Shown here: one piece after another, positions 26,340 to 56,945 of the stretch
Layout: each line of letters begins with the position of its first letter
Numbering within the stretch: position 1 is the stretch's first letter
Sequence record: PP496441.1
Reading direction: 5' to 3' (one strand)
Length of the DNA: 64,000 nt
Notes under the pieces: generated by a model
Database searches by the model: none
The model's input: the letters and a program-made list of their open reading frames with translations, nothing else
What the model was told of the DNA's origin: nothing
Position numbers and translations under genes: made by a program

Positions 26340-27458
26340 ATGGCCAGCCACGTCAAGCAAGATTATGCAGCGATCAGTGCGGCGCACCGTACGATCCTGC
26401 GGGAGATCGAAAGAATCCCAGGTCGCAAGAAACACAAGCCGACCAACATCGAGATTCAGTGCCCGTTCCACCCCGGAGACAATACGCCGTCCTGCGGCAT
26501 TTATATAGGCACGGGCGGCACGCTACCCCTAGGTTGGTTCTACTGTTTGGGTTGTGGTGCCAAAGGTCCGTGGAATAAGCTGGCCGAGAAGTTGAAGCTG
26601 CAAACCATTGCAAGGTCTGATACCAAACGGGACAGTGCCTCCGTATCCAGTACGGAAATGGATCGGGCCAGATTGAAGTGTATGGGCGCTGACAAGACCG
26701 GGGTGGATCAGTATGCCAGTGTGATGCGTCTGGGAATGCCTAAGCCGTTCGACAGGCCCCAGTGGAGGGGTATCAGTGGCGCCTTGATGAGGGACTTGGG
26801 TGCACAGATAGCGGTGGATACGACCAGCAAACGACTGCGGGAGGTACTGCTACTGCCACTAACTCTATATGGGGAATTGGTTACCGTCATCAAGGCAGCG
26901 ATGTACAAAGTGAAGGGTGACCTGAGCTATGTCGTGTATGACGAAGCAGATACCAAGACGAAAGGGTTGTTCGGCTTCGACCTAGTGGTGGATATGCTGA
27001 ACAAAGGCAAGTATCAGTGGGTGGTGCTGGTGGAAGGTCAGCGGGACGCATTGCGCCTGATTCAGTACGGCATCCCGGCCATCGCCATCCTTGGCACCCA
27101 GAGCTGGACAGCGGAGAAGCGTGACCTGCTGGTGGGATTGGGTACAGGTGTGGCAGTGATGATGGACGGTGACCCGGCAGGTGTGGCAGCGGCTAGGAAG
27201 ATCATGCCGGACTTGCGCCGTCTAACAGAAGTCCGGGAAATTGATCTGATGCCGTTGACCGAGGAATTCGGACAGAAGGTGGACCCCGGCAACATGCCCA
27301 TCTGGAAAATCAAGGAGCTGCAGGCGCTAAATGTCAGCAGCCGTAAACTTCGGGGGCGCAGAGTTCCCCGGTACAGTCGCAGGCAGGAACGTGTCGATAA
27401 GCAAACACGTCAAGGCCAAGTTAATCGATATCAAGTTGAACTGGAGCAGTCAGAATGA
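26340..27458 (+). CDS. dnaG: DNA primase (CHC2 zinc finger plus Toprim)
   Basis: 'CPFH...TPSC...YCLGC', 'LVEGQRDA', 'MMDGDPAG'; GAGG RBS 8 nt before ATG 26340. Confidence 0.88.
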   Translation: MASHVKQDYAAISAAHRTILREIERIPGRKKHKPTNIEIQCPFHPGDNTPSCGIYIGTGGTLPLGWFYCLGCGAKGPWNKLAEKLKLQTIARSDTKRDSASVSSTEMDRARLKCMGADKTGVDQYASVMRLGMPKPFDRPQWRGISGALMRDLGAQIAVDTTSKRLREVLLLPLTLYGELVTVIKAAMYKVKGDLSYVVYDEADTKTKGLFGFDLVVDMLNKGKYQWVVLVEGQRDALRLIQYGIPAIAILGTQSWTAEKRDLLVGLGTGVAVMMDGDPAGVAAARKIMPDLRRLTEVREIDLMPLTEEFGQKVDPGNMPIWKIKELQALNVSSRKLRGRRVPRYSRRQERVDKQTRQGQVNRYQVELEQSE

Positions 27459-44723: not shown

Positions 44724-47700
44724 TTAGAAGGATGAATTGTTGACCATCATCACCATAATGTCATCGATGTTCTTGGCCGCTTTGGTCGTACCATTACCAG
44801 AGTTGCTGCCCCCACCACCGGATTGAACCACTTGTGGTGCAGGTTGCTCTTTAACCGCATTGGTGGTACGGTCCTGTGTCTGAATGAGTGCTGCCGTCTG
44901 TGCAGTCTGCAACTGCGACTTGCTCTCATTGAGATTGCTGCGTGCGGAACCAACGTCCTGCAGGTTGCTGTTGGCTGCACTCAGGGACTTGAACTCACCT
45001 GTGACAAGGGGTGCCGAAGATTCTACTGGCTTGATCATCGACAGGCGTTGTGCTGGTTCGGTCAGGACACCTTTGCTAACCTGGGGGTCCAGCATCACTG
45101 CCGGATCGGTAGGCTTGCTCTGGGTGATAGGAACCGGACCCGTAATGCCTTTGGTTGCCGACATTGGCTGATTAGCCGCAGGCGTGGACACAGTGGTGGC
45201 TGGAAGCGGAGTAATGCCTGGAATGAATGGCGTGGTAGGTGCAGCGTCGCCTTTAACCGGTACGTCGGTAGCCGGGCCAGCCTTGCCGATAGCCAGTGGC
45301 GCTATTACCTTGCCGTTGGTATCCACCTTTGGTACGGTCATGGACGTACTGATCGCAGCATCCACCTTGTTCTTCATATCCTTGCTGTACTTCTGGTTGT
45401 TCTCCGTACCATTCCAGGCGTCAAGCATTTCGATGTCGGAGATCTGACCTTGGTAGCCTTCCTGACGGAACACTGCCTTGGCAATCGCCATCATCGTCGG
45501 CTGGTCGTTAGGATCCAGCTTCTGGTTTGGATCGATACCGGTTTCCTTCGAGACGGCCGTGACATAGCCACTGGTATCGTTCTCGTTCGGCGGTGTCAGC
45601 TTGTTGACCAACTGCTTCAAGGTCATGCCTTCCGCAGACACGTGCTTGCGCGCCAGTTTGAACCATGCCCTAGCACCGTGCACGACAGTATCGAACTTCT
45701 CGAAGCCACCTTCCTGACCGACTTCACCTACCCACTGGTTCTTGTCGCTGGCCCGGATGTTACCTGGGTTGAAGTTCCGGGTTGCCAGTGTGGCTTGTCC
45801 TTTGAGTGGCCCAGAACCGGAACCCTGATACGATACGCTCTGATCCAGCGTACCCGGCTGCGGCAGAACAGGAATGGCTTGTCCCTTGATGTTCGGCGAT
45901 GCGCTGAAGTCTTCAGCGGGGCTGGATACGGACTGTTCTTTGTCGAACCAGTTCATCGGGTTGATGCGGGTTGCCAGATCCTTGGCTTTCTGCACCATAT
46001 CTGCAATACGGTTCGGGTTGCTGAAGAAGTCGATGGCCGCACCGATGGCGATACCCGTCGGGCCAAAGATTGCACCCTTTAGTCCACCCTCACCAAGGTA
46101 ATCCTTAGCGGTGTCCAGCATGTTCGTGCCGAGCTTGGTCACAGAGTCCAGTGTACCCGATGCTAGATCCTGTACCGACTTCCAGCCTTCCGTACCCCAC
46201 GTTGTGACAGTATCCCAGCCTTTGCTTAGGCCGGTCATCATGTCATTAGTGAAACCTTCCATGTACTTCGATGCTTTGTCCAGGCCACCCGCTACAGTGT
46301 CGGTGACGAACTTGGATGCAGGTCCCAGTACATTGGTAACCTTGTCCAGTCCCGCATAGATGTCTTTGGTGTCGATCAAGCCGAACGACAACCCCGAGGC
46401 AATAGAGGACAGTGCCGCTTGAGACTTCTGACCGAACGTGGCTTCTTGACCCGGCTTCAACCCGGCGATGTCTGAGGCGTTATTCCAACCGTCGAACCCA
46501 TCGTAGGCCGCCATCGCAGCGATACCGATAGGACCTAAGAGTTTGCTGGCGCCGGAAAGCAGCCCTCGACCCGCCAGCCGTGCTACCTTACCCCCAGCTT
46601 TGGCTAAACCCACGCCTCGGCTGGCAAGCTTACCCGCACGCGTGGCTGGCCTTGGCCGGGCCGACGGGACGTGGGGCTCACCAGCAGATGGACCAGTTGG
46701 ATGCGGCGTAGAAGAGTTACGAGGACGAACCGATCCGGTGGCTGTATCCAGAACCGCGTCAATGTTGTCATCTGTTTGGTCACGACCACGACGCAGGCCA
46801 ACCAGACTGCCAATAGCCCCGGCACCAGCACCTACAAACGCTGCCATCTTGCCGACGCGACCGGTAGCGAAGCGGCCAACACCTTTGGCAGCACGCCCCA
46901 GACGACTGCCACCCCGAGCAGCTCCTTCCGCTGTACCCCTTGCAGCTCCTTTGCGCGCAGCACGGCCTGTGAGGATAGCCGAGCCAGCGGCACCCAGACC
47001 ACCCACGATACCGTCGGACAATCCTAGAGCAGCGTCGAAGTTACCCAAGCCTAGAGCATTGAGCAAGCCAGAGATTGCGGTGGACGCTACGCCTTTACCA
47101 GCAGCAACGATGCCGGGGTTGCGAACGAAGCGATCACTCAGCTTGTTCTTTTGCAGCCCAGACTCTACGTCGCCGTGATCCAGCAACGACTCATCGAACT
47201 TCTCGTTCAACTCTTTCAGGTTGAATACGATCTTTTCGTCAGTAGTGTCAGACTGAACTTTCTGCAAGATGTTGGCAACTTTCTTGCTGGTGTGAGCATT
47301 CAGCTTACCGTCTGCCCGAAACGCTTTCTGCATAGCCACCACTTGCGCAGCGAATTGCGGAATGGCAGACAGCTGTTTGATCACACCTTGCATCGCATCC
47401 TTGCGTTCATTCAGGCTACCGTTCTTCAACGTCTTGATAGCACCCGCGATGTCCGCGTCTACTGACTGGCGTTGGAATGCAACCTTCTCATATCCCTTGA
47501 GCATGGTTGCAATCTGAGCGTATTCCTTCTCCGAGATGTCGCTGTTATGCGACAGGAGCTTCTCGATGTCCTTTAACTGCGGGTTCTCTTTCAGCTGGCG
47601 CGACTGGCGCAGGAAGCCAACGGTCTCCCCCGCAATGGTGCTCCGGTAGTTCTTACCCAGTCGGCGGTCCGTGATACGATCAGTCATCTGGCTGACGACT

Positions 47701-48239
47701 TTGTTGCTGTCTACGTGCGCAATCGGAGCAACCGCTTTGAGATCGATAGCTACCGCTTTGGCAGACTCGACAACGGCGTGTGCCTGATCAGAGTCAACCG
47801 ACTTCCGGTTCAACACATCTTCGTACAGCTTGCGCTCGGGACCGGACCGGAACTTCTGAAGACGCTCCAGTGCATCCATCTGGTCCTGAATGGTCTTTTG
47901 CAGGGACTCATCACCCTGCTTCTGAGCCTTCTTCATCTGCTTCATCAGTTCCAGCTGGGTCTTGCTGTAATCCAGCAGATCCGACTGGTTGCTCACCGAG
48001 TCCAGAATGGTGGTCAACTGATCGTGTAAACCTTTACCCATGAGGAAGGTGGGCACCATGGATTTCATGGCACGCTTGAGCACGTCAACGCCTTCCGTGA
48101 AAGCACTAGAGGCCAATGCGTTTGACCGCTCGGCCATCTTGAGTTGCTTTTCACTCATCTTGTCCCGATCAATGGAACTCGGGTCGATGTTGTTACTCTT
48201 GAGGATGTCTAGGTACGTTTCATTGATTAGGGTCGGCAT
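44724..48239 (-). CDS. Tape measure/baseplate-hub protein with a lysozyme-like domain
   Basis: 1171 aa, helical and G/A-rich; 'RNFNPGNIR...F..F.T...G.RA...PPNENDT..YV..V...G' domain; lies downstream of the chaperone gene. Confidence 0.8.
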   Translation of the reverse strand: MPTLINETYLDILKSNNIDPSSIDRDKMSEKQLKMAERSNALASSAFTEGVDVLKRAMKSMVPTFLMGKGLHDQLTTILDSVSNQSDLLDYSKTQLELMKQMKKAQKQGDESLQKTIQDQMDALERLQKFRSGPERKLYEDVLNRKSVDSDQAHAVVESAKAVAIDLKAVAPIAHVDSNKVVSQMTDRITDRRLGKNYRSTIAGETVGFLRQSRQLKENPQLKDIEKLLSHNSDISEKEYAQIATMLKGYEKVAFQRQSVDADIAGAIKTLKNGSLNERKDAMQGVIKQLSAIPQFAAQVVAMQKAFRADGKLNAHTSKKVANILQKVQSDTTDEKIVFNLKELNEKFDESLLDHGDVESGLQKNKLSDRFVRNPGIVAAGKGVASTAISGLLNALGLGNFDAALGLSDGIVGGLGAAGSAILTGRAARKGAARGTAEGAARGGSRLGRAAKGVGRFATGRVGKMAAFVGAGAGAIGSLVGLRRGRDQTDDNIDAVLDTATGSVRPRNSSTPHPTGPSAGEPHVPSARPRPATRAGKLASRGVGLAKAGGKVARLAGRGLLSGASKLLGPIGIAAMAAYDGFDGWNNASDIAGLKPGQEATFGQKSQAALSSIASGLSFGLIDTKDIYAGLDKVTNVLGPASKFVTDTVAGGLDKASKYMEGFTNDMMTGLSKGWDTVTTWGTEGWKSVQDLASGTLDSVTKLGTNMLDTAKDYLGEGGLKGAIFGPTGIAIGAAIDFFSNPNRIADMVQKAKDLATRINPMNWFDKEQSVSSPAEDFSASPNIKGQAIPVLPQPGTLDQSVSYQGSGSGPLKGQATLATRNFNPGNIRASDKNQWVGEVGQEGGFEKFDTVVHGARAWFKLARKHVSAEGMTLKQLVNKLTPPNENDTSGYVTAVSKETGIDPNQKLDPNDQPTMMAIAKAVFRQEGYQGQISDIEMLDAWNGTENNQKYSKDMKNKVDAAISTSMTVPKVDTNGKVIAPLAIGKAGPATDVPVKGDAAPTTPFIPGITPLPATTVSTPAANQPMSATKGITGPVPITQSKPTDPAVMLDPQVSKGVLTEPAQRLSMIKPVESSAPLVTGEFKSLSAANSNLQDVGSARSNLNESKSQLQTAQTAALIQTQDRTTNAVKEQPAPQVVQSGGGGSNSGNGTTKAAKNIDDIMVMMVNNSSF

Positions 48240-48249
48240 GGCCTGTTAC

Positions 48250-48451
48250 CTATTTCCGCTGGATCAAACTGGAGAGCATCTTCAACATGTTAGCGTTGCG
48301 GTCAGCCTCCTCTTTGAGACGGATCGTTAACAGGTTGTTCAGCTTCACCAGTCTGTCGTACGGCATAAATTGAATGTGGAAGGCATCAACTATCCCTTCC
48401 GCGGCCAAATCGCAAGCCATTTTTAGAAGTAGGCGTGGCTCCACGAAAGGG
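48250..48451 (-). CDS. +1-frame C-terminal extension of the tail assembly chaperone (GT-like segment)
   Basis: Overlapping frame without a convincing RBS or ATG, entered at CCC_TTT_CGT (48443-48451). Confidence 0.6.
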
Positions 48452-49393
48452 TGTGACAAGCATCGAGTCCTCCTTCACCTCGACACGAACATTTTTGATG
48501 ACCCGTTCAATGAACTGCGGATAGAAGTTCTTTTGACCTTCCTCTTTCTCCGCTTCCATTTTTACCCAATCTTCGTTGAGCACTTTCTCTTTGACCGGGA
48601 CGATCAAGTCCGAGATACCGTGGTAGAGCATGGTATCGATGGCCGTCAGCATCATCATCCGCTCGCCTGTGGCGTCGGCCACCAGCTTCAACATGGGCTC
48701 AAGGTCCTGATCACTGCCCAAAGCCAACCATGCGTGAGCCTGATTGATATCCTTGCGAACTTCTTCCGGGACATTGAGGTAGGCCAGATGCTGGCGCAGA
48801 GTGACCGGCATGAACTCGATGCTCTGCATGCGACCACTGATCTCAGTATCGAGAATGATCGGCAACTCTACGGTGAGTTCATCGAATTCCAGCTGAGATG
48901 CACGCATGATGTGGTGACATTCTACCTCATCCACCACGAAGGACAGCTGCACCTCTTCCGTACCCATGGTGGAGAACTTGCGGTACATCGCGATGCAGAT
49001 GAAGTCACCCATAGTCAGGTCGAGTGGATCGATCCCGGTGGCAGTAATGCCGTCGAGAATGTGCATGAACCGCTCAATCTCGGAGAACCGCCCTTCACTG
49101 ACCGTTTCAATCTCGGCAAACGTGTAGGGACGGTAAGACACCGTGACGCCCGCCGGGTAGGGGCGGAACTGGCTCGGCAGTTCCTTCATCTGGAACCACG
49201 GCACGTCCACTTCTTCAGTGGTGAGCTTCTGAGGGGGCAGTGGCTCGGGTGCTGCTTGCATCATGGAGGCCAAGCTTACTGCATCACCATCCACGGAGTC
49301 TTGATCAACGTCGCCCCAATCAAGGCTTTCCTTCTTAGGGTCGGGCGTATCCGCCTGCCGTTGGTGTGGGGGAATGGGGTTCTGGGTGAACAT
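48386..49393 (-). CDS. Tail assembly chaperone/baseplate hub assembly protein (G-like)
   Basis: 'LPSQFRPY...RPYT..EI...', 'LT.GDF..IA.YR'; immediately upstream of the tape measure gene. Confidence 0.7.
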   Translation of the reverse strand: MFTQNPIPPHQRQADTPDPKKESLDWGDVDQDSVDGDAVSLASMMQAAPEPLPPQKLTTEEVDVPWFQMKELPSQFRPYPAGVTVSYRPYTFAEIETVSEGRFSEIERFMHILDGITATGIDPLDLTMGDFICIAMYRKFSTMGTEEVQLSFVVDEVECHHIMRASQLEFDELTVELPIILDTEISGRMQSIEFMPVTLRQHLAYLNVPEEVRKDINQAHAWLALGSDQDLEPMLKLVADATGERMMMLTAIDTMLYHGISDLIVPVKEKVLNEDWVKMEAEKEEGQKNFYPQFIERVIKNVRVEVKEDSMLVTPFRGATPTSKNGLRFGRGRDS

Positions 49394-49420: not shown

Positions 49421-50503
49421 TTAGCTGAAGAACTGACCGATACTCGTCTTGGCTGACTTGTAGCCACTGGCTACCTGGTTTGCACCGCTGTTGATAGCGT
49501 TGTTCGCGGACTGCGAGATTCCACTGGTGGCGCTGTCGAACTTGCTGGAGACGGCACCGATGGCGCTGGTGTAGGCATTGCTGACATCGTTCTGCAACGT
49601 AGTCAAGCCGGTGGAGATGCGGTCGATGGCGCTGTTGGCCGTGCTACTCAGCCCCGCAGCACTCTTGAGCAAGCTGGTCGCCGTGCCGGATGGATCCAGG
49701 TCGCTACGGGTTGCACCCGGCGAACCTATCACCTCAAGCTTGAGCACATACTGGCTCAGGTCACCCTGCGACTTGCCGGAGAAAGTTAGCGTACCCGACG
49801 GAACTACCTTGTACGGACGAATCTCCACGGTGTCCTTTTGCCGGGACATCTTCTTGATGTACAGCATCTTGTACGCATCACCCATAGGCACGATGCGACC
49901 ACCTGATCCGCCGATGTTCTGGTTCATCCACGTGGTGAAGTAGTTGAACAGACTATTGACATGATCGTCCAAGAAGACAATCTGGATCGACATGGCATGC
50001 GTACCTTCCATGATGGTAATCGTGGTCGGCCCCATCTGGAAGTCACGGGTGGTTACGTGCGCAGCGTCTTCCTCGATATCAATGACTGGAAGCCAAGACT
50101 GGAAGTACGAGGGCAGCGCATTAGCGTCGGCCAACTTGATGTCCCAGAGCTGATCAGTGTTCCACTCCACCTGTTGCAAGTCCAGTACGTTCTGCAAGTA
50201 GCCGGAGTGTGCCGGGATAGGAGGTGACGCATTGGCGTAGTTGCCGATGCTGCCTTGGAACAGTCCGAGGGACGTAAGCCCGCTCTTGATGGCTCCCAGT
50301 GAAAGGGAGTTGTCACCTGTGAGTCGATACAACTTGTCGTTGATCTTTTGTTCAACGTAGCCACCCAGCCGACTCTGAATGGTGTTGCCAATTATGCCTG
50401 TTACCGCGCCAAGTGATCCACTCTTGCGATAGGTACTGATTGCCTCGATACCCGTAGTGAATGCCCCCAGCGCGCTATTGGTCTTTAGACTGAAAAGGCC
50501 CAT
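49421..50503 (-). CDS. Tail tube-like/baseplate protein
   Basis: GAGGA RBS before ATG 50503; tube-like core 'W...LWDIK...I.F.DD....F..W...'; flanking low-complexity Ser/Ala/Thr segments. Confidence 0.55.
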   Translation of the reverse strand: MGLFSLKTNSALGAFTTGIEAISTYRKSGSLGAVTGIIGNTIQSRLGGYVEQKINDKLYRLTGDNSLSLGAIKSGLTSLGLFQGSIGNYANASPPIPAHSGYLQNVLDLQQVEWNTDQLWDIKLADANALPSYFQSWLPVIDIEEDAAHVTTRDFQMGPTTITIMEGTHAMSIQIVFLDDHVNSLFNYFTTWMNQNIGGSGGRIVPMGDAYKMLYIKKMSRQKDTVEIRPYKVVPSGTLTFSGKSQGDLSQYVLKLEVIGSPGATRSDLDPSGTATSLLKSAAGLSSTANSAIDRISTGLTTLQNDVSNAYTSAIGAVSSKFDSATSGISQSANNAINSGANQVASGYKSAKTSIGQFFS

Positions 50504-51184: not shown

Positions 51185-54100
51185 TTACGCCACCTCACGC
51201 AGCTTCCACTTGGTTTCGGCCTTGACTGCTTTCGCCAGTGCCCGACCGGCAGCAGCCTCGCTGATCTTGCCGAGGTCTGTGTTGCCGTCCTGCGTTTCGA
51301 GTACGTAGCCAGCCTTGGTCTTGACCAGTGCAATGAAGCGCGTGCCAGACTTGGTTTGGAAGCGACGGATCGTCTTGCCGGTTACTTCGGTGTTCACCTT
51401 GGCAGCGGGTGTACGCTTCTTCGTGCGCAGCGTCAGCGACTTGATCGTTTCCATGACCTCGTCGTAGTTGCCCACACTTACACCTGAACGCACGATGGCG
51501 TCCAGTTCTGCCTTGGCTTCCGCCTTGCTGTTCGACAGGATGAACCACTCGCTGTCCGAAGACTCCCACTTGACCGTAGGAACGATAACCTTGCGACGCA
51601 CCTGTACAGCCGATGGTTGCTTAGTCATGTCTACCAAGATCCAGCATTCACCTTCGTAGAACATCACGTATGGACGCAGTTCACCTTTCGGCACCGCGCG
51701 CTTGCGGTCCAGGTGGAAGTTGCGAACGTCGGTGTCGAGTGCAGCCTCGAAGTTCAGGAGTCGGCGCTTGCCTTGTGTGAACGCGGCTAGTGCGGATTCC
51801 AGATCTTTCAAGTAGCGCGGCTGAACCTCGAAGTTCTCTTTCAGCTTGTCGATGACGCTGGACAACGCCCGATAGGTCGGCACGATTGCATAAATGAACT
51901 TCCCGGTCTCGCGGAAGCCCAACTGCGTAGCCATCTTGTCCGTGACATCCGGGTCTTCGCGATCCAATGCCAGCTGGATCATGTTGTTCAACACACCTGG
52001 GTACACGTAGATCTCACCATCAAGATCACGGTTACGTTCCACCACGGCTTTCTTGACCGGGGCATCCGGGATCGGCGCGGGTGCGTCTTCCGGTTCCTCG
52101 GTGTCGTCTTCCTCCGGTTCCTCTACCACTGGATCGGATTCAGGCGTCGAGTACTGGGTGGCGCGTTCCGGCATGCCCACCATCTCTGCCAGTCGCTGGC
52201 GTACGGGCACCTTGTTCGGCTTGAGGATCACGAACACCGCCAGCTTGTTAACCGAGACCGTGCCGATTTCCTTGATCTTCACCTTGAGGGTGTTTTTCCC
52301 GGAGCTGATAACCTCTCCATCCCCGTACTCGGTGTGAACCTGCAAACCTTTCATGTCGGCTTCATCAGCCGTCAAGTCATTGTCTGCCAGCCAGTCGGAT
52401 ACCGGAATGATACCCAGCGCGTCTGTGAACGGCAGCTGCATGTTCGAGGTGTACGGCACCGTGATCAGCGCGGAGCCCGGCAGGTTACCCGCTGTCGGAA
52501 TCTCCTTGGCTTTTGTTGGGCCGTCGTACGTCTTGAGAAAGTCGGCGTATTCATCCCGGCGGATCTTGGTGTACTGCCCGTAAGCATCTACGTAGCTGAA
52601 CAGCGAACCCTGATCGTCTTCCGAACCGAACTTGTTGGCGTCCATGATCGAATCAAGAGTCATGCTGACCAGCGGCAGGTTAGGCAGCTTGTCGTAACGA
52701 GCGTCCGACGCCTGGAAGCGAACCATCGTCAAGAGCTTCGACATCATCCGTGCCGTCTTGGTCACGTCGATAGTGCCGTCGGCAATGATGCGGTCGAAGA
52801 AGATCTTGCTGCGTGCACCATACTTGTTCTTCGGGTCGGGGCGGTTGAGTCGCGACTGCCCTTGTTCGAATTCCCCCGGCGACCATACCGAGTCCGTCGA
52901 GATCAAGCGGTTGACGAACTGGAAGTTGTGGCCTGTGTTCAGGGATGTCTCAACCCCGATCAAGCCGATGATACTGTCATCCTTCTCGAACTTTGGCAGC
53001 AGCTTGTCCTTGTCTGCGGCGTAGTACAGGATAACCTTCTTCTGGAGGTCAGGTGGAAGCGATGCGTGCAATGCCTGAGCCGATGCCACATACGCACAGA
53101 AGATCAGCACCTTGCCGTTCGTTTTGTCGCGGCTGTGCTCATCGAACAACCGGATGATCTCTTTGGCTTTCGGGCTGATACGATCCGAGCCCTGCAATAC
53201 CTTGTCACCAACCTTATCGTGCGCCGGTGCCGAGATGAACATTTCCAGTCGCTGCAAGTACGGACGCAGCAGCATCTCGATGTTGGCGACGTTTTCCTCA
53301 CCTTCATCCGACGCTTTCAGTTTCTTCATCAGATCCGCATCGGCCATGATGGCTTCGACGGCATCATTCAGAATGTCCTGATAAACGGCCATCTGTTTCT
53401 TCGACAGCGACACCTTGTGGAACGTCTCAGTGGCCGCTGGCAACAATGCTGCCCACTCCCGCCGGGACACACGCACGTAGTCTGCTGCGCTGTTCATCTG
53501 GGTACGCACGTCACGCTCGGCGTTGTTCTTCCAGCTGAGCGGTTTCCCTTGGAACGTCTCGGCAGCGTACCGCTCGATGAAGTCCTTCTTGGAACCGAAC
53601 GTCGATGGCGACATGATCGAGAACTGACCTGCCGCATCCGTCAGTTGCCCGTGCACGTAGGTACCTGTGGTCTGACGGAGGTTATCCGACAGGGTGGCCT
53701 GCGCCCGTACCGAGGAAGATCGTGCACTGTCCAAGTTGGCCAGATACTGCGATTCGTCCATGGACAAGTAGATCCACTCGAAGCGGCGCATCAGCTCTGA
53801 GTTGTTCGACAGGATCAGATCGGTGTTGCCGTACTGAATGCTGTACTGCCCGTTCTTGGGGAAGTCGAAGTCACACAGAACCAACGTGTTGACCGGCGCG
53901 TTGTAGATCAAGTTGTACATGTAGTCGTGACCGTAACGGTTGATCACGTCTGTGGACAGCACAATCACGTTGACCGAACCTTGGGTCAAGTAAGTGATGT
54001 CCTCGATGTAGTTCTTGATCAGGTTCTTCGGGCACATCATCAGCGGACGCTTCTGCTGCTGGCCTTTCAGATCGCCACGCTCGTAATACTGACCGAGGGT

Positions 54101-56935
54101 GTACAGGCAGTCCAACACGTTCATCAGCGTCTTACCGCCGCCCGCATCCACGTGGTCAACCTTCTTGTCCGGCTGGCGCTGACCCGACACAATGGGTCGG
54201 ATCTGGTGAGCCAGTGCGGAGAAGTCGGAACGGATGAACGGAACCGGTGACACTTCCGTCTCGTCGTTGACCTTGACCGGGTTCAGCGAATACTTCGCCT
54301 GCTTGGCCGCTACTTGGGACTTCAGTTCGTCCTTGGCCGACTGGTCTGCATACTTCGCCATGGCAAAGATAGAAGCCACACCTTGCATACGACTGGTGAC
54401 CGACAACACGTTACTGGTGCCGATGGCCTTCGGATCGCTGAGGACCTTGAACAACGCGTCCGTACCGTCTTGCATGGCTTCGACCGCAATACGGCCAATG
54501 CCTCGGAGCATAGGGATATTGGAATCCGCAGTCAGATGGCTGAGTCGCAGGTCCTTATACACCTCTTCGAACGGGTAATCGCCAATGTCGATGTCCCGAT
54601 CAACCAGACGCTTCGACAGCGAGGACACGGATTGCAGCACCTCGTGGATAGTTGGGTTGCCCCCAGCCGGGAACAGGAAGTCTTGAACGCTCTCACCCAG
54701 CACGTCAGTCACTGTGGGGGGTACGTCGAAGTCACCTTCCTCGAAGTAATCCGTAACCTTCTTGCCCTTGTAGTTCAACCACGCGGTCAGCGAGTTACGC
54801 AGGTAGCCGAACGACAGCGACTTGGGCGCAACATACTGTTCCAATGTCTTGCTGTATTCCATGACGCTGGCCGGGGAATAAGCCGAGACGTCATACGTGA
54901 CCAGTCCACCAGACGAAGTGGTGTAGCTGAGGATGTCCGCGCCCCAGTCAGTGAAGATGTAGTAGGAGCGTAGACGGCCTTGAGCGAATTGCTTGATAAC
55001 CAGATTATCCGTCTTGGCGTTGTCCGGGATCATGTACTGGTTCTGGATGCTGATCTCAGGAGTTTCCTGACCCTCAACCTCTTTGAACTTCGCTTTGACG
55101 CCACCCATGCCCACGTCTTGGCGGGTGTATTCGTTGTCTGCGAAGGCACCGCGATACGAATCCTCGATGGCCTTCTCGTACTGCGCAACGATCTGTGGAT
55201 CAGCGGTGGGCACGAACACCAGGTCAGCATCGGGACCAACCATCATCTGGTCACCGTTCAAACGCGAACGCTGCGGCATTGCGCGGGTATCTGCGATTGC
55301 CTTGCCCACGGCACGATAGAACGATGCATCTGTCTTGGCGAACGAGTACTGCGCGTCAGTCATCTGATACGCCCACTCGGCCACGTCAACCGGGGCGGGT
55401 GGAGAGTGCTGAGTCACGAACGCAGCCACGTCTTCCGAGATAGTGAACTCGGAGAAAGCAACAACCTCGGCGTCACCTGCCTCACCGATGTTAGACAGAC
55501 GACACATGAACGAGCGGGACTTCAGACGCGCCATCGCATCCTTGTAGTCCGCCTTGTCTACCACGTCAGTCTGCAGTGACGGTGGCACTGGCATCTTGTT
55601 GGACGTCAACCAGCCATTGAGGCGGGTCATCGGCGTGTTTTCCAGAAGCCAGTTGATGAAGTCAACCGGTGCCTTTGGCATGGTTGGTTCTTCCGGTGCG
55701 CCCGCAGTCAGGTTGCCGTCCAGCCCCCGGTACGCATGGTTCCAGTTCTTGAGCAGGCGCTCTAGAATCTTGCCGCCGACTTCCTGCCGCACTTTTTCAA
55801 AGGACGGTTTGTCTTCCTTCGAATAGGCGAAGATGATCTTGGCGACCATGCTCTCGTTGACATCAGACCAGTTGTTGTCGTAGTCCAGATCTTCGATGCG
55901 ATACTTGCGCAGCACATCTAGCTGTTGCTGGTTGGTGAAGCTGCAATACATCACGTTCTCACCAAGAGTACGACGCACGTACGGCATCTTACCGGCGGTG
56001 CCCGTGCCATTGAGGAAGCTTACCTCATTGGTGCTTTGTACGCCTGCATCACCACGGGGTGGTGATACTTCGATCAGCAGGTTGAGCCCACCAACCAGTT
56101 CCTTCAACCCATCTTTCTCGAAGGCGAAGTCGTTCTCGCCCATCAAGATTTCCTTGTCGATGAACGGACTGTTCAACGCAGATTTGAAGTTGACAGGAAT
56201 GCGCAACCGCATCTGGCGAGTCATGTCGTCCAACGCCAGCGGATCTTCCATGAACTTGCCCAGTGCAGTCTTGAGCAGTTCCAGTTGGCTGGTCATCAGT
56301 GCGTCGACCTTGGTCTGCATCCGGCTACGCTCGTCCAGCGGCAGATACACCATGGCATTTTGCAGGATCTTAACACGCGGGACAACGTAGGCCATGTCGA
56401 TTCTGCTTTCGACGCAAATGCCGATTGCGTCAAGCATCTCAGGGACCGAGAATCCGGGGATGCGGGACTCTTTGACGTTGCTGCCCATGGCCGGGATAGC
56501 CAGCGTGAAGTCACCTCGACCATTCGCCGTCACCTTGGTATACGGCGCCAGCGTACGCATGCCTTCCGACATCTCGTCCCACTTATCAGCCTTGATCGTA
56601 GCACGGTTGGCACGGAAGGAGGCCGGAGGGTTAACACCGTAGTCCTTGAACTCCAGGCTTTCCTTCATGTCCTGCAACAGACGCTTGCCGTTGTCGAACA
56701 ACTTCGGCAGCTCGGTCTCGAACAAGTTCGGTACCTTGGACAGTTCGTCCATCAGCGATGCGCCGCCCACGGACAGAACAGCGTACGCCATGCTGTGCAG
56801 GTCACCCAGCTTGTAGTCGTACGTTGCTTCGTAGTCTTCAGGCTCTTCAACCGGCTCGGCCAATGGTGCTGCCAGCGAGCGTAAGCGTTCCGTCTCTTCC
56901 GGGGCGCGACTACGCCGTTTTGATTTCTTGCTCAT
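51185..56935 (-). CDS. Giant SNF2-family (SF2) helicase/ATPase-domain protein
   Basis: Motif I 'DAGGGKT', Ia 'MCPKNL', II 'MDESQ', III 'TGT', and V/VI 'LNTGHNFQ...DSVWSP...EQGQSRLNR'; about 1916 aa. Confidence 0.85.
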   Translation of the reverse strand: MSKKSKRRSRAPEETERLRSLAAPLAEPVEEPEDYEATYDYKLGDLHSMAYAVLSVGGASLMDELSKVPNLFETELPKLFDNGKRLLQDMKESLEFKDYGVNPPASFRANRATIKADKWDEMSEGMRTLAPYTKVTANGRGDFTLAIPAMGSNVKESRIPGFSVPEMLDAIGICVESRIDMAYVVPRVKILQNAMVYLPLDERSRMQTKVDALMTSQLELLKTALGKFMEDPLALDDMTRQMRLRIPVNFKSALNSPFIDKEILMGENDFAFEKDGLKELVGGLNLLIEVSPPRGDAGVQSTNEVSFLNGTGTAGKMPYVRRTLGENVMYCSFTNQQQLDVLRKYRIEDLDYDNNWSDVNESMVAKIIFAYSKEDKPSFEKVRQEVGGKILERLLKNWNHAYRGLDGNLTAGAPEEPTMPKAPVDFINWLLENTPMTRLNGWLTSNKMPVPPSLQTDVVDKADYKDAMARLKSRSFMCRLSNIGEAGDAEVVAFSEFTISEDVAAFVTQHSPPAPVDVAEWAYQMTDAQYSFAKTDASFYRAVGKAIADTRAMPQRSRLNGDQMMVGPDADLVFVPTADPQIVAQYEKAIEDSYRGAFADNEYTRQDVGMGGVKAKFKEVEGQETPEISIQNQYMIPDNAKTDNLVIKQFAQGRLRSYYIFTDWGADILSYTTSSGGLVTYDVSAYSPASVMEYSKTLEQYVAPKSLSFGYLRNSLTAWLNYKGKKVTDYFEEGDFDVPPTVTDVLGESVQDFLFPAGGNPTIHEVLQSVSSLSKRLVDRDIDIGDYPFEEVYKDLRLSHLTADSNIPMLRGIGRIAVEAMQDGTDALFKVLSDPKAIGTSNVLSVTSRMQGVASIFAMAKYADQSAKDELKSQVAAKQAKYSLNPVKVNDETEVSPVPFIRSDFSALAHQIRPIVSGQRQPDKKVDHVDAGGGKTLMNVLDCLYTLGQYYERGDLKGQQQKRPLMMCPKNLIKNYIEDITYLTQGSVNVIVLSTDVINRYGHDYMYNLIYNAPVNTLVLCDFDFPKNGQYSIQYGNTDLILSNNSELMRRFEWIYLSMDESQYLANLDSARSSSVRAQATLSDNLRQTTGTYVHGQLTDAAGQFSIMSPSTFGSKKDFIERYAAETFQGKPLSWKNNAERDVRTQMNSAADYVRVSRREWAALLPAATETFHKVSLSKKQMAVYQDILNDAVEAIMADADLMKKLKASDEGEENVANIEMLLRPYLQRLEMFISAPAHDKVGDKVLQGSDRISPKAKEIIRLFDEHSRDKTNGKVLIFCAYVASAQALHASLPPDLQKKVILYYAADKDKLLPKFEKDDSIIGLIGVETSLNTGHNFQFVNRLISTDSVWSPGEFEQGQSRLNRPDPKNKYGARSKIFFDRIIADGTIDVTKTARMMSKLLTMVRFQASDARYDKLPNLPLVSMTLDSIMDANKFGSEDDQGSLFSYVDAYGQYTKIRRDEYADFLKTYDGPTKAKEIPTAGNLPGSALITVPYTSNMQLPFTDALGIIPVSDWLADNDLTADEADMKGLQVHTEYGDGEVISSGKNTLKVKIKEIGTVSVNKLAVFVILKPNKVPVRQRLAEMVGMPERATQYSTPESDPVVEEPEEDDTEEPEDAPAPIPDAPVKKAVVERNRDLDGEIYVYPGVLNNMIQLALDREDPDVTDKMATQLGFRETGKFIYAIVPTYRALSSVIDKLKENFEVQPRYLKDLESALAAFTQGKRRLLNFEAALDTDVRNFHLDRKRAVPKGELRPYVMFYEGECWILVDMTKQPSAVQVRRKVIVPTVKWESSDSEWFILSNSKAEAKAELDAIVRSGVSVGNYDEVMETIKSLTLRTKKRTPAAKVNTEVTGKTIRRFQTKSGTRFIALVKTKAGYVLETQDGNTDLGKISEAAAGRALAKAVKAETKWKLREVA

Positions 56936-56945
56936 GGATTGCACC

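Follow-up and report, generated by a model that had tools for sequence, protein, structure and literature searches.

A predicted programmed +1 frameshift at CCC_UUU_CGU in a gp26/gp51-family tail chaperone gene of a giant Pseudomonas phage

Sequence record PP496441.1 derives from a giant Pseudomonas phage. In the stretch analysed here (64,000 nucleotides, hereafter the window), a predicted tail assembly chaperone gene, G, and an open +1 frame, T, overlap just ahead of a tape-measure-like gene; all features of the frameshift lie on the minus strand. Our results make it very probable that G and T are linked by a programmed +1 shift at CCC_UUU_CGU, during which the P-site tRNA-Phe moves from UUU to UUC. 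That the two are joined in +1 by one route or another is held with slightly greater confidence. According to the proposed mechanism, a small fraction of the ribosomes on G would slip one base forward at this site, with tRNA-Phe leaving UUU for UUC, on which it pairs better. The slip would exchange the last 19 residues of G for a 64-residue helical T domain, giving a 380-residue protein, GT, beside the abundant 335-residue G. By analogy with phage lambda (PMC5009743), G would coat the tape measure protein and the T domain of GT would recruit the tail tube. We infer that the shift takes place, that it is ribosomal and of +1 type, that Phe rather than Pro slips, and that the rate is of a few percent. 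The proposal draws on two overlapping frames, on the conservation of the UUU_C codons, on the passage of protein conservation from frame 0 to +1 at the site, on T having no conserved start and on a chaperone-like fold of G; together with the lack of a fused open reading frame (ORF) among the proteins searched, these favour, at the level of sequence comparison, the TTT-to-TTC slippage first suggested in an initial annotation of the window. The main features are as follows.

48386..49393, minus strand: G, with a 335-residue frame-0 product, predicted tail assembly chaperone of the gp26/gp51 family (PF12322-related), from ORF, homology and model
48443..48451, minus strand: predicted +1 shift site CCC_UUU_CGU, where P-site UUU (48448-48446) would re-pair on UUC (48447-48445), from codon conservation
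48250..48447, minus strand: T, a 65-codon +1 frame (FVEPRLLLKMACDLA...IQRK, then stop), predicted C-terminal domain of the 380-residue GT
48475..48477, minus strand: TGA, the nearest upstream +1 stop, which limits where the +1 frame can be entered
44724..48239, minus strand: tape-measure-like gene of 1171 residues with a lytic domain, from PHROG matches, size and position

In frame 0, the window reads ...ATG CTT GTC ACA CCC (48451) TTT (48448-48446) CGT (48445-48443) GGA... and continues for 18 codons to TGA (48388-48386), so that the C-terminus of G is ...EDSMLVTPFRGATPTSKNGLRFGRGRDS. No stop interrupts the +1 frame between TGA 48477-48475 and TAG 48252-48250, and this frame runs up to the tape-measure-like gene, as first described; the motif and both frames of the initial annotation were recovered, and the strand, which it had left unstated, is the minus one. 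Translated from its upstream stop, the +1 frame gives RRTRCLSHPFVEPRLLLKMACDLAAEG...IQRK (...PFVEPRLLLKMACDLAAEG...IQRK around the site), and its own stop lies 10 nucleotides before the ATG (48239) of the 1171-residue gene. With TTTC read as one step, the junction tryptic peptide of the predicted GT is EDSMLVTPFVEPR. In the window, the -1 frame closes 8 codons past the site; of the 52 clusters of homologous loci defined below, all except one have it closed within 26 codons. Taken by itself, the nonamer is within chance expectation (two in the window against 0.40 expected; 7 of 100 shuffles reach two). Its second copy, CCCTTTCGT at 26958-26966 on the minus strand, is antisense to a plus-strand ORF and consistent with chance. 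TTT is, however, an uncommon in-frame codon in this phage (51 of 493 Phe codons over 25 window genes), and the degree to which relatives keep the site greatly exceeds chance. No tRNA genes were found in the window.

To avoid circularity, the motif was left unused in collecting homologous loci, which were found through protein similarity or through peptide patterns of the N-terminal half only. The 103 complete loci, including that of the window, formed 54 clusters at 70% identity, 52 of which were kept after removal of a fragment (L141) and of Cobetia phage Carin-5 (L081), which is of RF2 type (see below). Also dropped before counting were 18 of the 157 G matches, which ended before the 3' end, and 36 pattern-found loci. 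The site of one locus (L113) was assigned by hand to its PF codons, and a motif-based scan, in which 38 of 69 loci were G homologues, was excluded from all statistics as circular. The 52 clusters range from 31 to 60% in GC content.

In these homologues, chosen without the motif, CCN_TTT_CGY was kept at the codon level, which answers positively the conservation check proposed initially. TTTC was present at the site in 51 of the 52 clusters. The Phe codon was TTT in 51 of 51 cases, where the codon usage of the individual genes predicts 30.9 (log10 P -12.8), and two control columns of conserved Phe were mixed (TTT:TTC of 20:9 and 18:11). Likewise, the Arg codon was CGT or CGC in 49 of 49 (15.3 expected), the whole A-site repertoire being CGT (43), CGC (6) and CAA, CAT and TCA (one each). 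The Pro codon was CCC in 38 of 52 clusters, against 9.9 expected, and otherwise CCG (7), CCT (5) or CCA (2). At the protein level, P-F stood at this column in 141 of 150 homologues, followed by R in 125, H in 6, C in 5, P in 2, L in 2 and Y in one; each of these residues is encodable by a pyrimidine-initial codon, and K, E, D, G and A were never encountered. Two loci, L113 and L129, displayed the variant sites CCC TTT CAA and CCC TTT CAT and longer spacers before the conserved T helix.

Protein conservation changes from frame 0 to +1 at the site. Upstream (codon -3), frame 0 is the conserved one, with an entropy of 1.01 versus 2.40 in +1; downstream (+1 codon +7, encoding L in 36, M in 5 and I in 4 clusters, with all six Leu codons in use), the entropy is 0.92 in +1 versus 2.96 in frame 0 (45 in-register clusters in both cases). 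From codon -1 to codon +43, all 52 clusters are free of +1 stops, while stop-free +1 windows of 44 codons make up 3.7% of those inside G. T is 44 to 79 codons long across the clusters and ends near the start of the next gene in most loci. Compared with its counterpart in Peetri, T of the window displays eight synonymous and three non-synonymous codon changes. Its model is a three-helix structure (predicted local distance difference test score, pLDDT, 93) that matched only generic helical folds; searches of T members returned no PHROG family at E 0.01 and no convincing Pfam match. The beginning of T shares its nucleotides with the end of G.

48386..48442, minus strand: dual-coding overlap, frame-0 tail GATPTSKNGLRFGRGRDS (then stop) over +1 EPRLLLKMACDLAAEGIV
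48409-48404, minus strand: conserved TTT GGC, encoding F-G in frame 0 and L-A in +1

The frame-0 tail had initially been described as non-protein-like. This description no longer holds, for an I/L-x-F-G motif is conserved in it (F in 126 and G in 129 of 150 homologues). It is because this frame-0 I-x-F-G is kept that the overlapping +1 Leu is TTG in 42 of 45 clusters. The overlap is therefore probably dual-coding and, frame-0 IxFG being kept, G appears to have a selected C-terminus of its own. The conserved TTT GGC was also considered as a second shift site and put aside, since +1 conservation starts upstream of it and dual coding explains its presence.

The window G has a counterpart in a hypothetical protein of Pseudomonas phage vB_PpuM-Illi-2, with 99.7% identity, and in five more such phages, with 89-99.7%. 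The Illi-2 collection is composed of jumbo myoviruses of P. putida (CEPEST G3), and the word frameshift is absent from the available part of the paper describing it (bioRxiv 10.1101/2024.03.26.586772). A profile search yielded 403 relatives of G at E <= 0.001, and hosts of G-family phages include Thermus, Pseudomonas, Vibrio, Rhizobium, Acinetobacter and E. coli. PF12322 (T4_baseplate) was matched by 87 of 147 aligned homologues (E <= 0.001) and not by the window G alone; Pfam and PHROG scans of the window G and T alone gave nothing useful. The G family as a whole aligned with the N-terminal region of the T4 gp51 family (hhalign probability 88.7, E 2.6e-6, 89 columns) and only weakly with gp26 alone (probability 27). 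No match was obtained by sequence searches of the PDB or by Foldseek against it. The G model (pLDDT 84) resembles viral models labelled 'baseplate hub assembly' and, among 48,161 solved chains, came closest to YqbN (3klu, Z 5.2, root-mean-square deviation (rmsd) 4.7, 85 residues aligned). Comparable values were found for the HK97 tail assembly chaperone (2ob9, Z 5.2, rmsd 4.5, 77 aligned) and lower ones for 3fgx (Z 4.3), any Z under 8 being weak; YqbN and 3fgx are tail chaperones as well. Taken together, position, family and fold suggest that G is a tail assembly chaperone. Structural matches fell on two separate regions of the model (63-146 and 179-260), which suggests a duplicated chaperone domain. 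The window G further distinguished itself by lacking two CxxC pairs kept in most of the family (four Cys columns, 116-119 of 150).

More distant G homologues were encountered in Cobetia phage Carin-5, Yersinia phages YerA41 and GN1, Ralstonia phage RP13 and contig L190 (E 7e-21 to 2e-9 against the family profile). None of these five displays P-F-R. Instead, their G frames end with AGG GGG TAC CCT TGA C, AGG AGT TAT CCC TAG C (two phages), AGG GGG TAT CTT TGA C or CGG GGG TAT CCC TAA C, so that all five loci carry the layout of RF2 (prfB) sites, a Shine-Dalgarno (SD) sequence, 3 nucleotides, CUU, CCU or CCC, a stop and C.

L081:3017-3032: RF2-type cassette of Carin-5
L218:2239-2254 and L219:2239-2254: RF2-type cassettes of GN1 and YerA41
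L220:2236-2251: RF2-type cassette of RP13
L190:2236-2251: RF2-type cassette of the contig

The cassette of RP13 is identical in every letter to the E. coli prfB site. After these cassettes, 40-45 open and unannotated +1 codons reach the next gene, and the -1 frame is closed within seven codons. The same order of elements (SD, 3 nucleotides, shift codon, stop, C) is given for the RF2 design in the literature (PMC5009743). Since these sister homologues carry a cassette of +1 type, the +1 join seems to have been kept through a change of signal. Judging from position and length, the sister +1 frames may be equivalent to T of the window. In the tree, the RF2-type loci form one long-branched group (99/99), a grouping compatible with either signal being the older one. 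UGA, UAG and UAA are all used in the cassettes, and the sensing release factor would therefore differ between phages. Further scans for this lineage added one contig only, a scan of genome contigs gave one marginal match of 24 residues that was not used, and no G homologue was present among 27 viral loci matching the RF2-type 16-mer.

Several points weigh against a programmed shift at UUU_CGU. The clusters share ancestry, so that the P values overstate their independence. P-F-R in frame 0 and F-V in +1 together force TTT_CGT, so that the exact slip codon does not follow from codon conservation alone. Vibrio phage Va2 (L010:3150-3160) is an exception to the motif: its aligned site reads TTT CCC TAT TCA, with UUU_C (or CCC_U) one codon earlier and a +1 frame of 79 codons. 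The resemblance of G to chaperones of solved structure is modest (Z 5.2, rmsd 4.5-4.7, 77-85 residues), and T of the RF2-type lineage reached at best E 0.11 against the T profile. Among the Arg codons of the window, CGU is used most (189 of 609 in the same 25 genes); the A-site pause of the influenza PA-X type is missing and there is no established stimulator. Finally, a TTG in the +1 frame of the window has a near-perfect SD sequence at 9 nucleotides (duplex -11.7 kcal/mol) and could start a free T of 69 residues, and 12 of the 52 clusters have a start at or before codon +7 with an SD of -6 kcal/mol or lower.

48469..48475, minus strand: internal SD-like AAGGAGG, 20 nucleotides 5' of UUU and 9 nucleotides 5' of the +1 TTG
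48457..48459, minus strand: +1-frame TTG, candidate start of a free T, not conserved

These last observations fit the explanation that T is a separate small gene started at TTG 48459 from AAGGAGG (or at ATG 48420 or TTG 48408), no frameshift being involved. Such an explanation is further favoured by a family-wide enrichment of SD-like runs 5' of the site, beyond what the amino acids need: runs of -7 kcal/mol or lower occur 12-25 nucleotides (mode 17) 5' of UUU in 35 of the 52 clusters versus 7.7% of control windows, synonymous shuffles reach -7 in 28% of cases (mean -7.9 in the clusters versus -5.6 +/- 0.3) and seven control offsets displayed no SD excess. Stand-alone small proteins of similar predicted shape also exist among viral models, for instance the P-HM1 'Gp51' (E 2.6, not significant), and the +1 codon +14 is TTG in 42 of 52 clusters. 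Yet this TTG mostly lacks an SD (7 of 43 at -4.7 kcal/mol or lower) and follows of necessity from F-G over L-A. In 17 of 52 clusters, several of those with the strongest SD among them (L085, L089, L102, L114, L127, L144 and L011), the closest +1 stop upstream lies 2-3 codons before Pro. Starts (ATG, GTG or TTG) are absent up to codon +7 in 10 clusters and up to +13 in 9; a start up to +7 is accompanied by an SD of -4 kcal/mol or lower in only 15 of the 52, and start positions vary. Moreover, the ATG and TTG candidates are placed downstream of the conserved +1 residues +1, +2 and +7, and a separate start leaves unexplained the TTT found in 51 of 51 clusters, since with a downstream start the site would not be part of the +1 coding sequence. 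The possibility of a GTG or TTG start of T conserved across the clusters was rejected. Because many clusters lack a start or a usable SD, separate initiation does not appear to be the mechanism of the family, and we consider it improbable for T. The initial annotation had seen no convincing ribosome-binding site or ATG: the internal ATG (48420) indeed lacks an SD (+1.7), but AAGGAGG stands 9 nucleotides before TTG 48459. Similarly, its check for independent initiation came out in favour of the shift in the clusters, where no T start is conserved, and less so in the window with its strong SD at TTG, from which some free T may be made.

A +1 slip one codon earlier, from CCC to CCU by tRNA-Pro (or in tandem with Phe), would give the same GT protein with an identical junction peptide. 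The enrichment of CCC described above, its inclusion among slippery +1 codons (PMC10885494) and the CCC_U kept without TTT_C at the aligned codon of Va2 speak for it; against it, TTT_C is kept in all 14 clusters with CCG, CCA or CCT, and CCC, like UCC in PA-X (PMC3498833), may exert its effect from the E site. Since CCG and CCA cannot re-pair in +1, the evidence points to Phe as the slipping tRNA, and a Pro slip is even less probable than a separate start. A -2 ribosomal shift, as in Mu, arrives in the same frame, and an SD 12-25 nucleotides upstream would pull backwards if it acted like -1 stimulators (PMC5009743). However, no re-pairing exists 2 nucleotides back, where tRNA-Phe would meet CCU, CGU or CAU and tRNA-Arg would meet UUC, and the cassette of the sister lineage is of the textbook +1 type. 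Polymerase slippage, the transcriptional variant of this explanation, lacks a long homopolymer at the site, and the two together are judged very improbable. Last, G and T could be one gene split by a sequencing error or a recent deletion, a possibility that has nothing for it beyond the geometry and is practically negligible. It is refuted by the conservation of the split, which is the same in Illi-2, Peetri and all 52 clusters. A single ORF uniting G and T, which the initial annotation had named as a refutation, was absent from 152 proteins, the best match (E 0.002) being a fragment of 154 residues, and from 7,997 longer candidate proteins, the latter being weak evidence.

As for what might stimulate the +1 slip of tRNA-Phe, a hungry-codon effect is unlikely since CGU is not rare in this phage, and a 3' RNA structure was rejected (mean z -0.2 for +9..+69; only 4 of 52 clusters under -2). 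The upstream SD-like run may modulate the shift rate. Known SD stimulators act at 3 nucleotides (+1) or 9-14 nucleotides (-1) (PMC5009743), and the spacing observed here fits neither the former nor, mostly, the latter. In the window, AAGGAGG also lies 5 nucleotides before an in-frame ATG (48463) at which a short frame-0 peptide could begin.

G directly precedes the tape-measure-like gene, the placement known from lambda. The large gene matched PHROG 2276 (tape measure, E 2.1e-18, residues 660-951) and PHROG 873 (endolysin, E 1.5e-33), and its Illi-2 copy is annotated as endolysin; a tape-measure role is suggested by its size and position. In Vibrio, Rhizobium, Acinetobacter, Escherichia and Cobetia phages, the gene order is sheath, tube, an additional gene, G, T and a large tail gene, most often with a lytic annotation. 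The sheath and tube genes of the window are located elsewhere and not adjacent to G.

49421-50503: 360-residue gene before G, of no clear family, with a weak tape measure PHROG match at its C-terminus; relatives carry a gene of 160-270 residues at this position, with a tube-like annotation in Carin-5
51185-56944: 1919-residue SNF2-type helicase gene directly upstream of the tail module, where relatives carry the sheath and tube genes

T was unannotated or falsely started in the GenBank records examined, and we propose to correct these annotations. It is unannotated in Illi-2 and Peetri, and in Rhizobium phage RHph_TM39 it is annotated as a separate gene from an internal ATG, with a similar situation in L004-L006. 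The G homologue of RHph_TM39 (L007:2468-3253; six identical relatives) is labelled 'peptidase domain-containing protein'. That of Thermus phage phiLo (L011:2474-3220), labelled 'DNA methylase', displays CCG TTT CGT and a 67-codon +1 frame; the next annotated genes in phiLo are small, with no obvious tape measure gene.

Documented tail-chaperone shifts are of -1 or -2 type, with T4 given as an exception (PMC5009743). Here, a +1 version is proposed in a chaperone of the T4 gp26/gp51 family, and in a phage group cultured on P. putida, a host both harmless and tractable. This makes it possible to test on bacterial ribosomes a PA-X-type signal so far characterised on eukaryotic ones, as well as its stimulus when CGU is not rare and the role of gp26/gp51-type proteins. 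A more tentative proposal, to which we give somewhat less than even chances, joins these elements: UUU_CGY of PA-X type would be a universal +1 cassette obeyed by bacterial ribosomes too, and this large myovirus family would use a version tuned by a far-upstream SD to set the G:GT ratio, as a swappable module replaced by an RF2-type cassette in the sister lineage. If this were true, the far-upstream SD element (about 17 nucleotides) would be of a new kind, T4-type gp26/gp51 chaperones would fall inside the G/GT scheme, and the RF2-type cassette would link tail-chaperone stoichiometry to the release-factor activity of the host, as a stop-sensing +1 switch placed in a morphogenesis gene of a phage.

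In the literature covered (titles, beginnings of abstracts and passages, with most subscription journals outside this coverage), we found no account of a shift in the G family or of an RF2-type chaperone cassette, and according to the PRFect paper no general forward-shift motif is known (PMC10885494). UUU_Ynn is recorded as +1-prone in bacteria (PMC5009743). Like the prfB (RF2) site, that of the window is of +1 direction, but it has no A-site stop and its SD lies 20 rather than 3 nucleotides upstream. In Halorubrum myovirus HSTV-2, the tail chaperone shift is described in a review as 'very likely +1' (PMC5009743); this virus shares with G a myovirus tail chaperone and a predicted +1 direction, but is an archaeal virus. 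In T4, gp26 and gp51 are hub assembly chaperones (Leiman et al., PMC3004832). The G family resembles them by its PF12322 matches and its alignment with the gp51 N-terminal region, yet gp26 and gp51 are two separate and divergently transcribed genes. A correspondence between T and the gp51 C-terminus did not reach significance: the profile-profile probability was 0.1, a forced global alignment in register scored 2.6 among decoys of 1.1-8.5, and the fold comparison with P-HM1 Gp51 was weak (E 2.6, TM score 0.66/0.79).

At the influenza A PA-X site, UCC_UUU_CGU, the +1 shift was demonstrated by mass spectrometry, with a rate of about 1% (PMC3498833). With this site and those of amalgaviruses, fijiviruses and chronic bee paralysis virus (CBPV) (PMC3498833), the window shares the UUU_CGY core with F-R in frame 0 over F-V in +1; as in PA-X, there is no 3' structure and the preferred E-site codon has CC before UUU. 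The PA-X-like signal announced by the initial annotation thus stands for its core and not for its surroundings, since CCN replaces UCC and CGU is abundant rather than rare; in addition, the ribosome is bacterial and an SD-like run lies upstream. The proteins being unrelated, the likeness is probably convergent. A functional parallel would be lambda gpG/gpGT (also P2 E/E+E' and, with -2, Mu; PMC5009743). Both systems place the chaperone gene just before the tape measure gene, both have a second overlapping frame under selection without a conserved start of its own (the window having its non-conserved TTG with SD), and the model of the window G comes near the HK97 chaperone, with a weak Z. They differ in that the G family codes for proteins of about 250-335 residues related to T4 gp26/gp51 in a myovirus, and in that its predicted shift is +1 on a single-tRNA UUU_C, the site displaying no X_XXY_YYZ heptamer of the -1 type.

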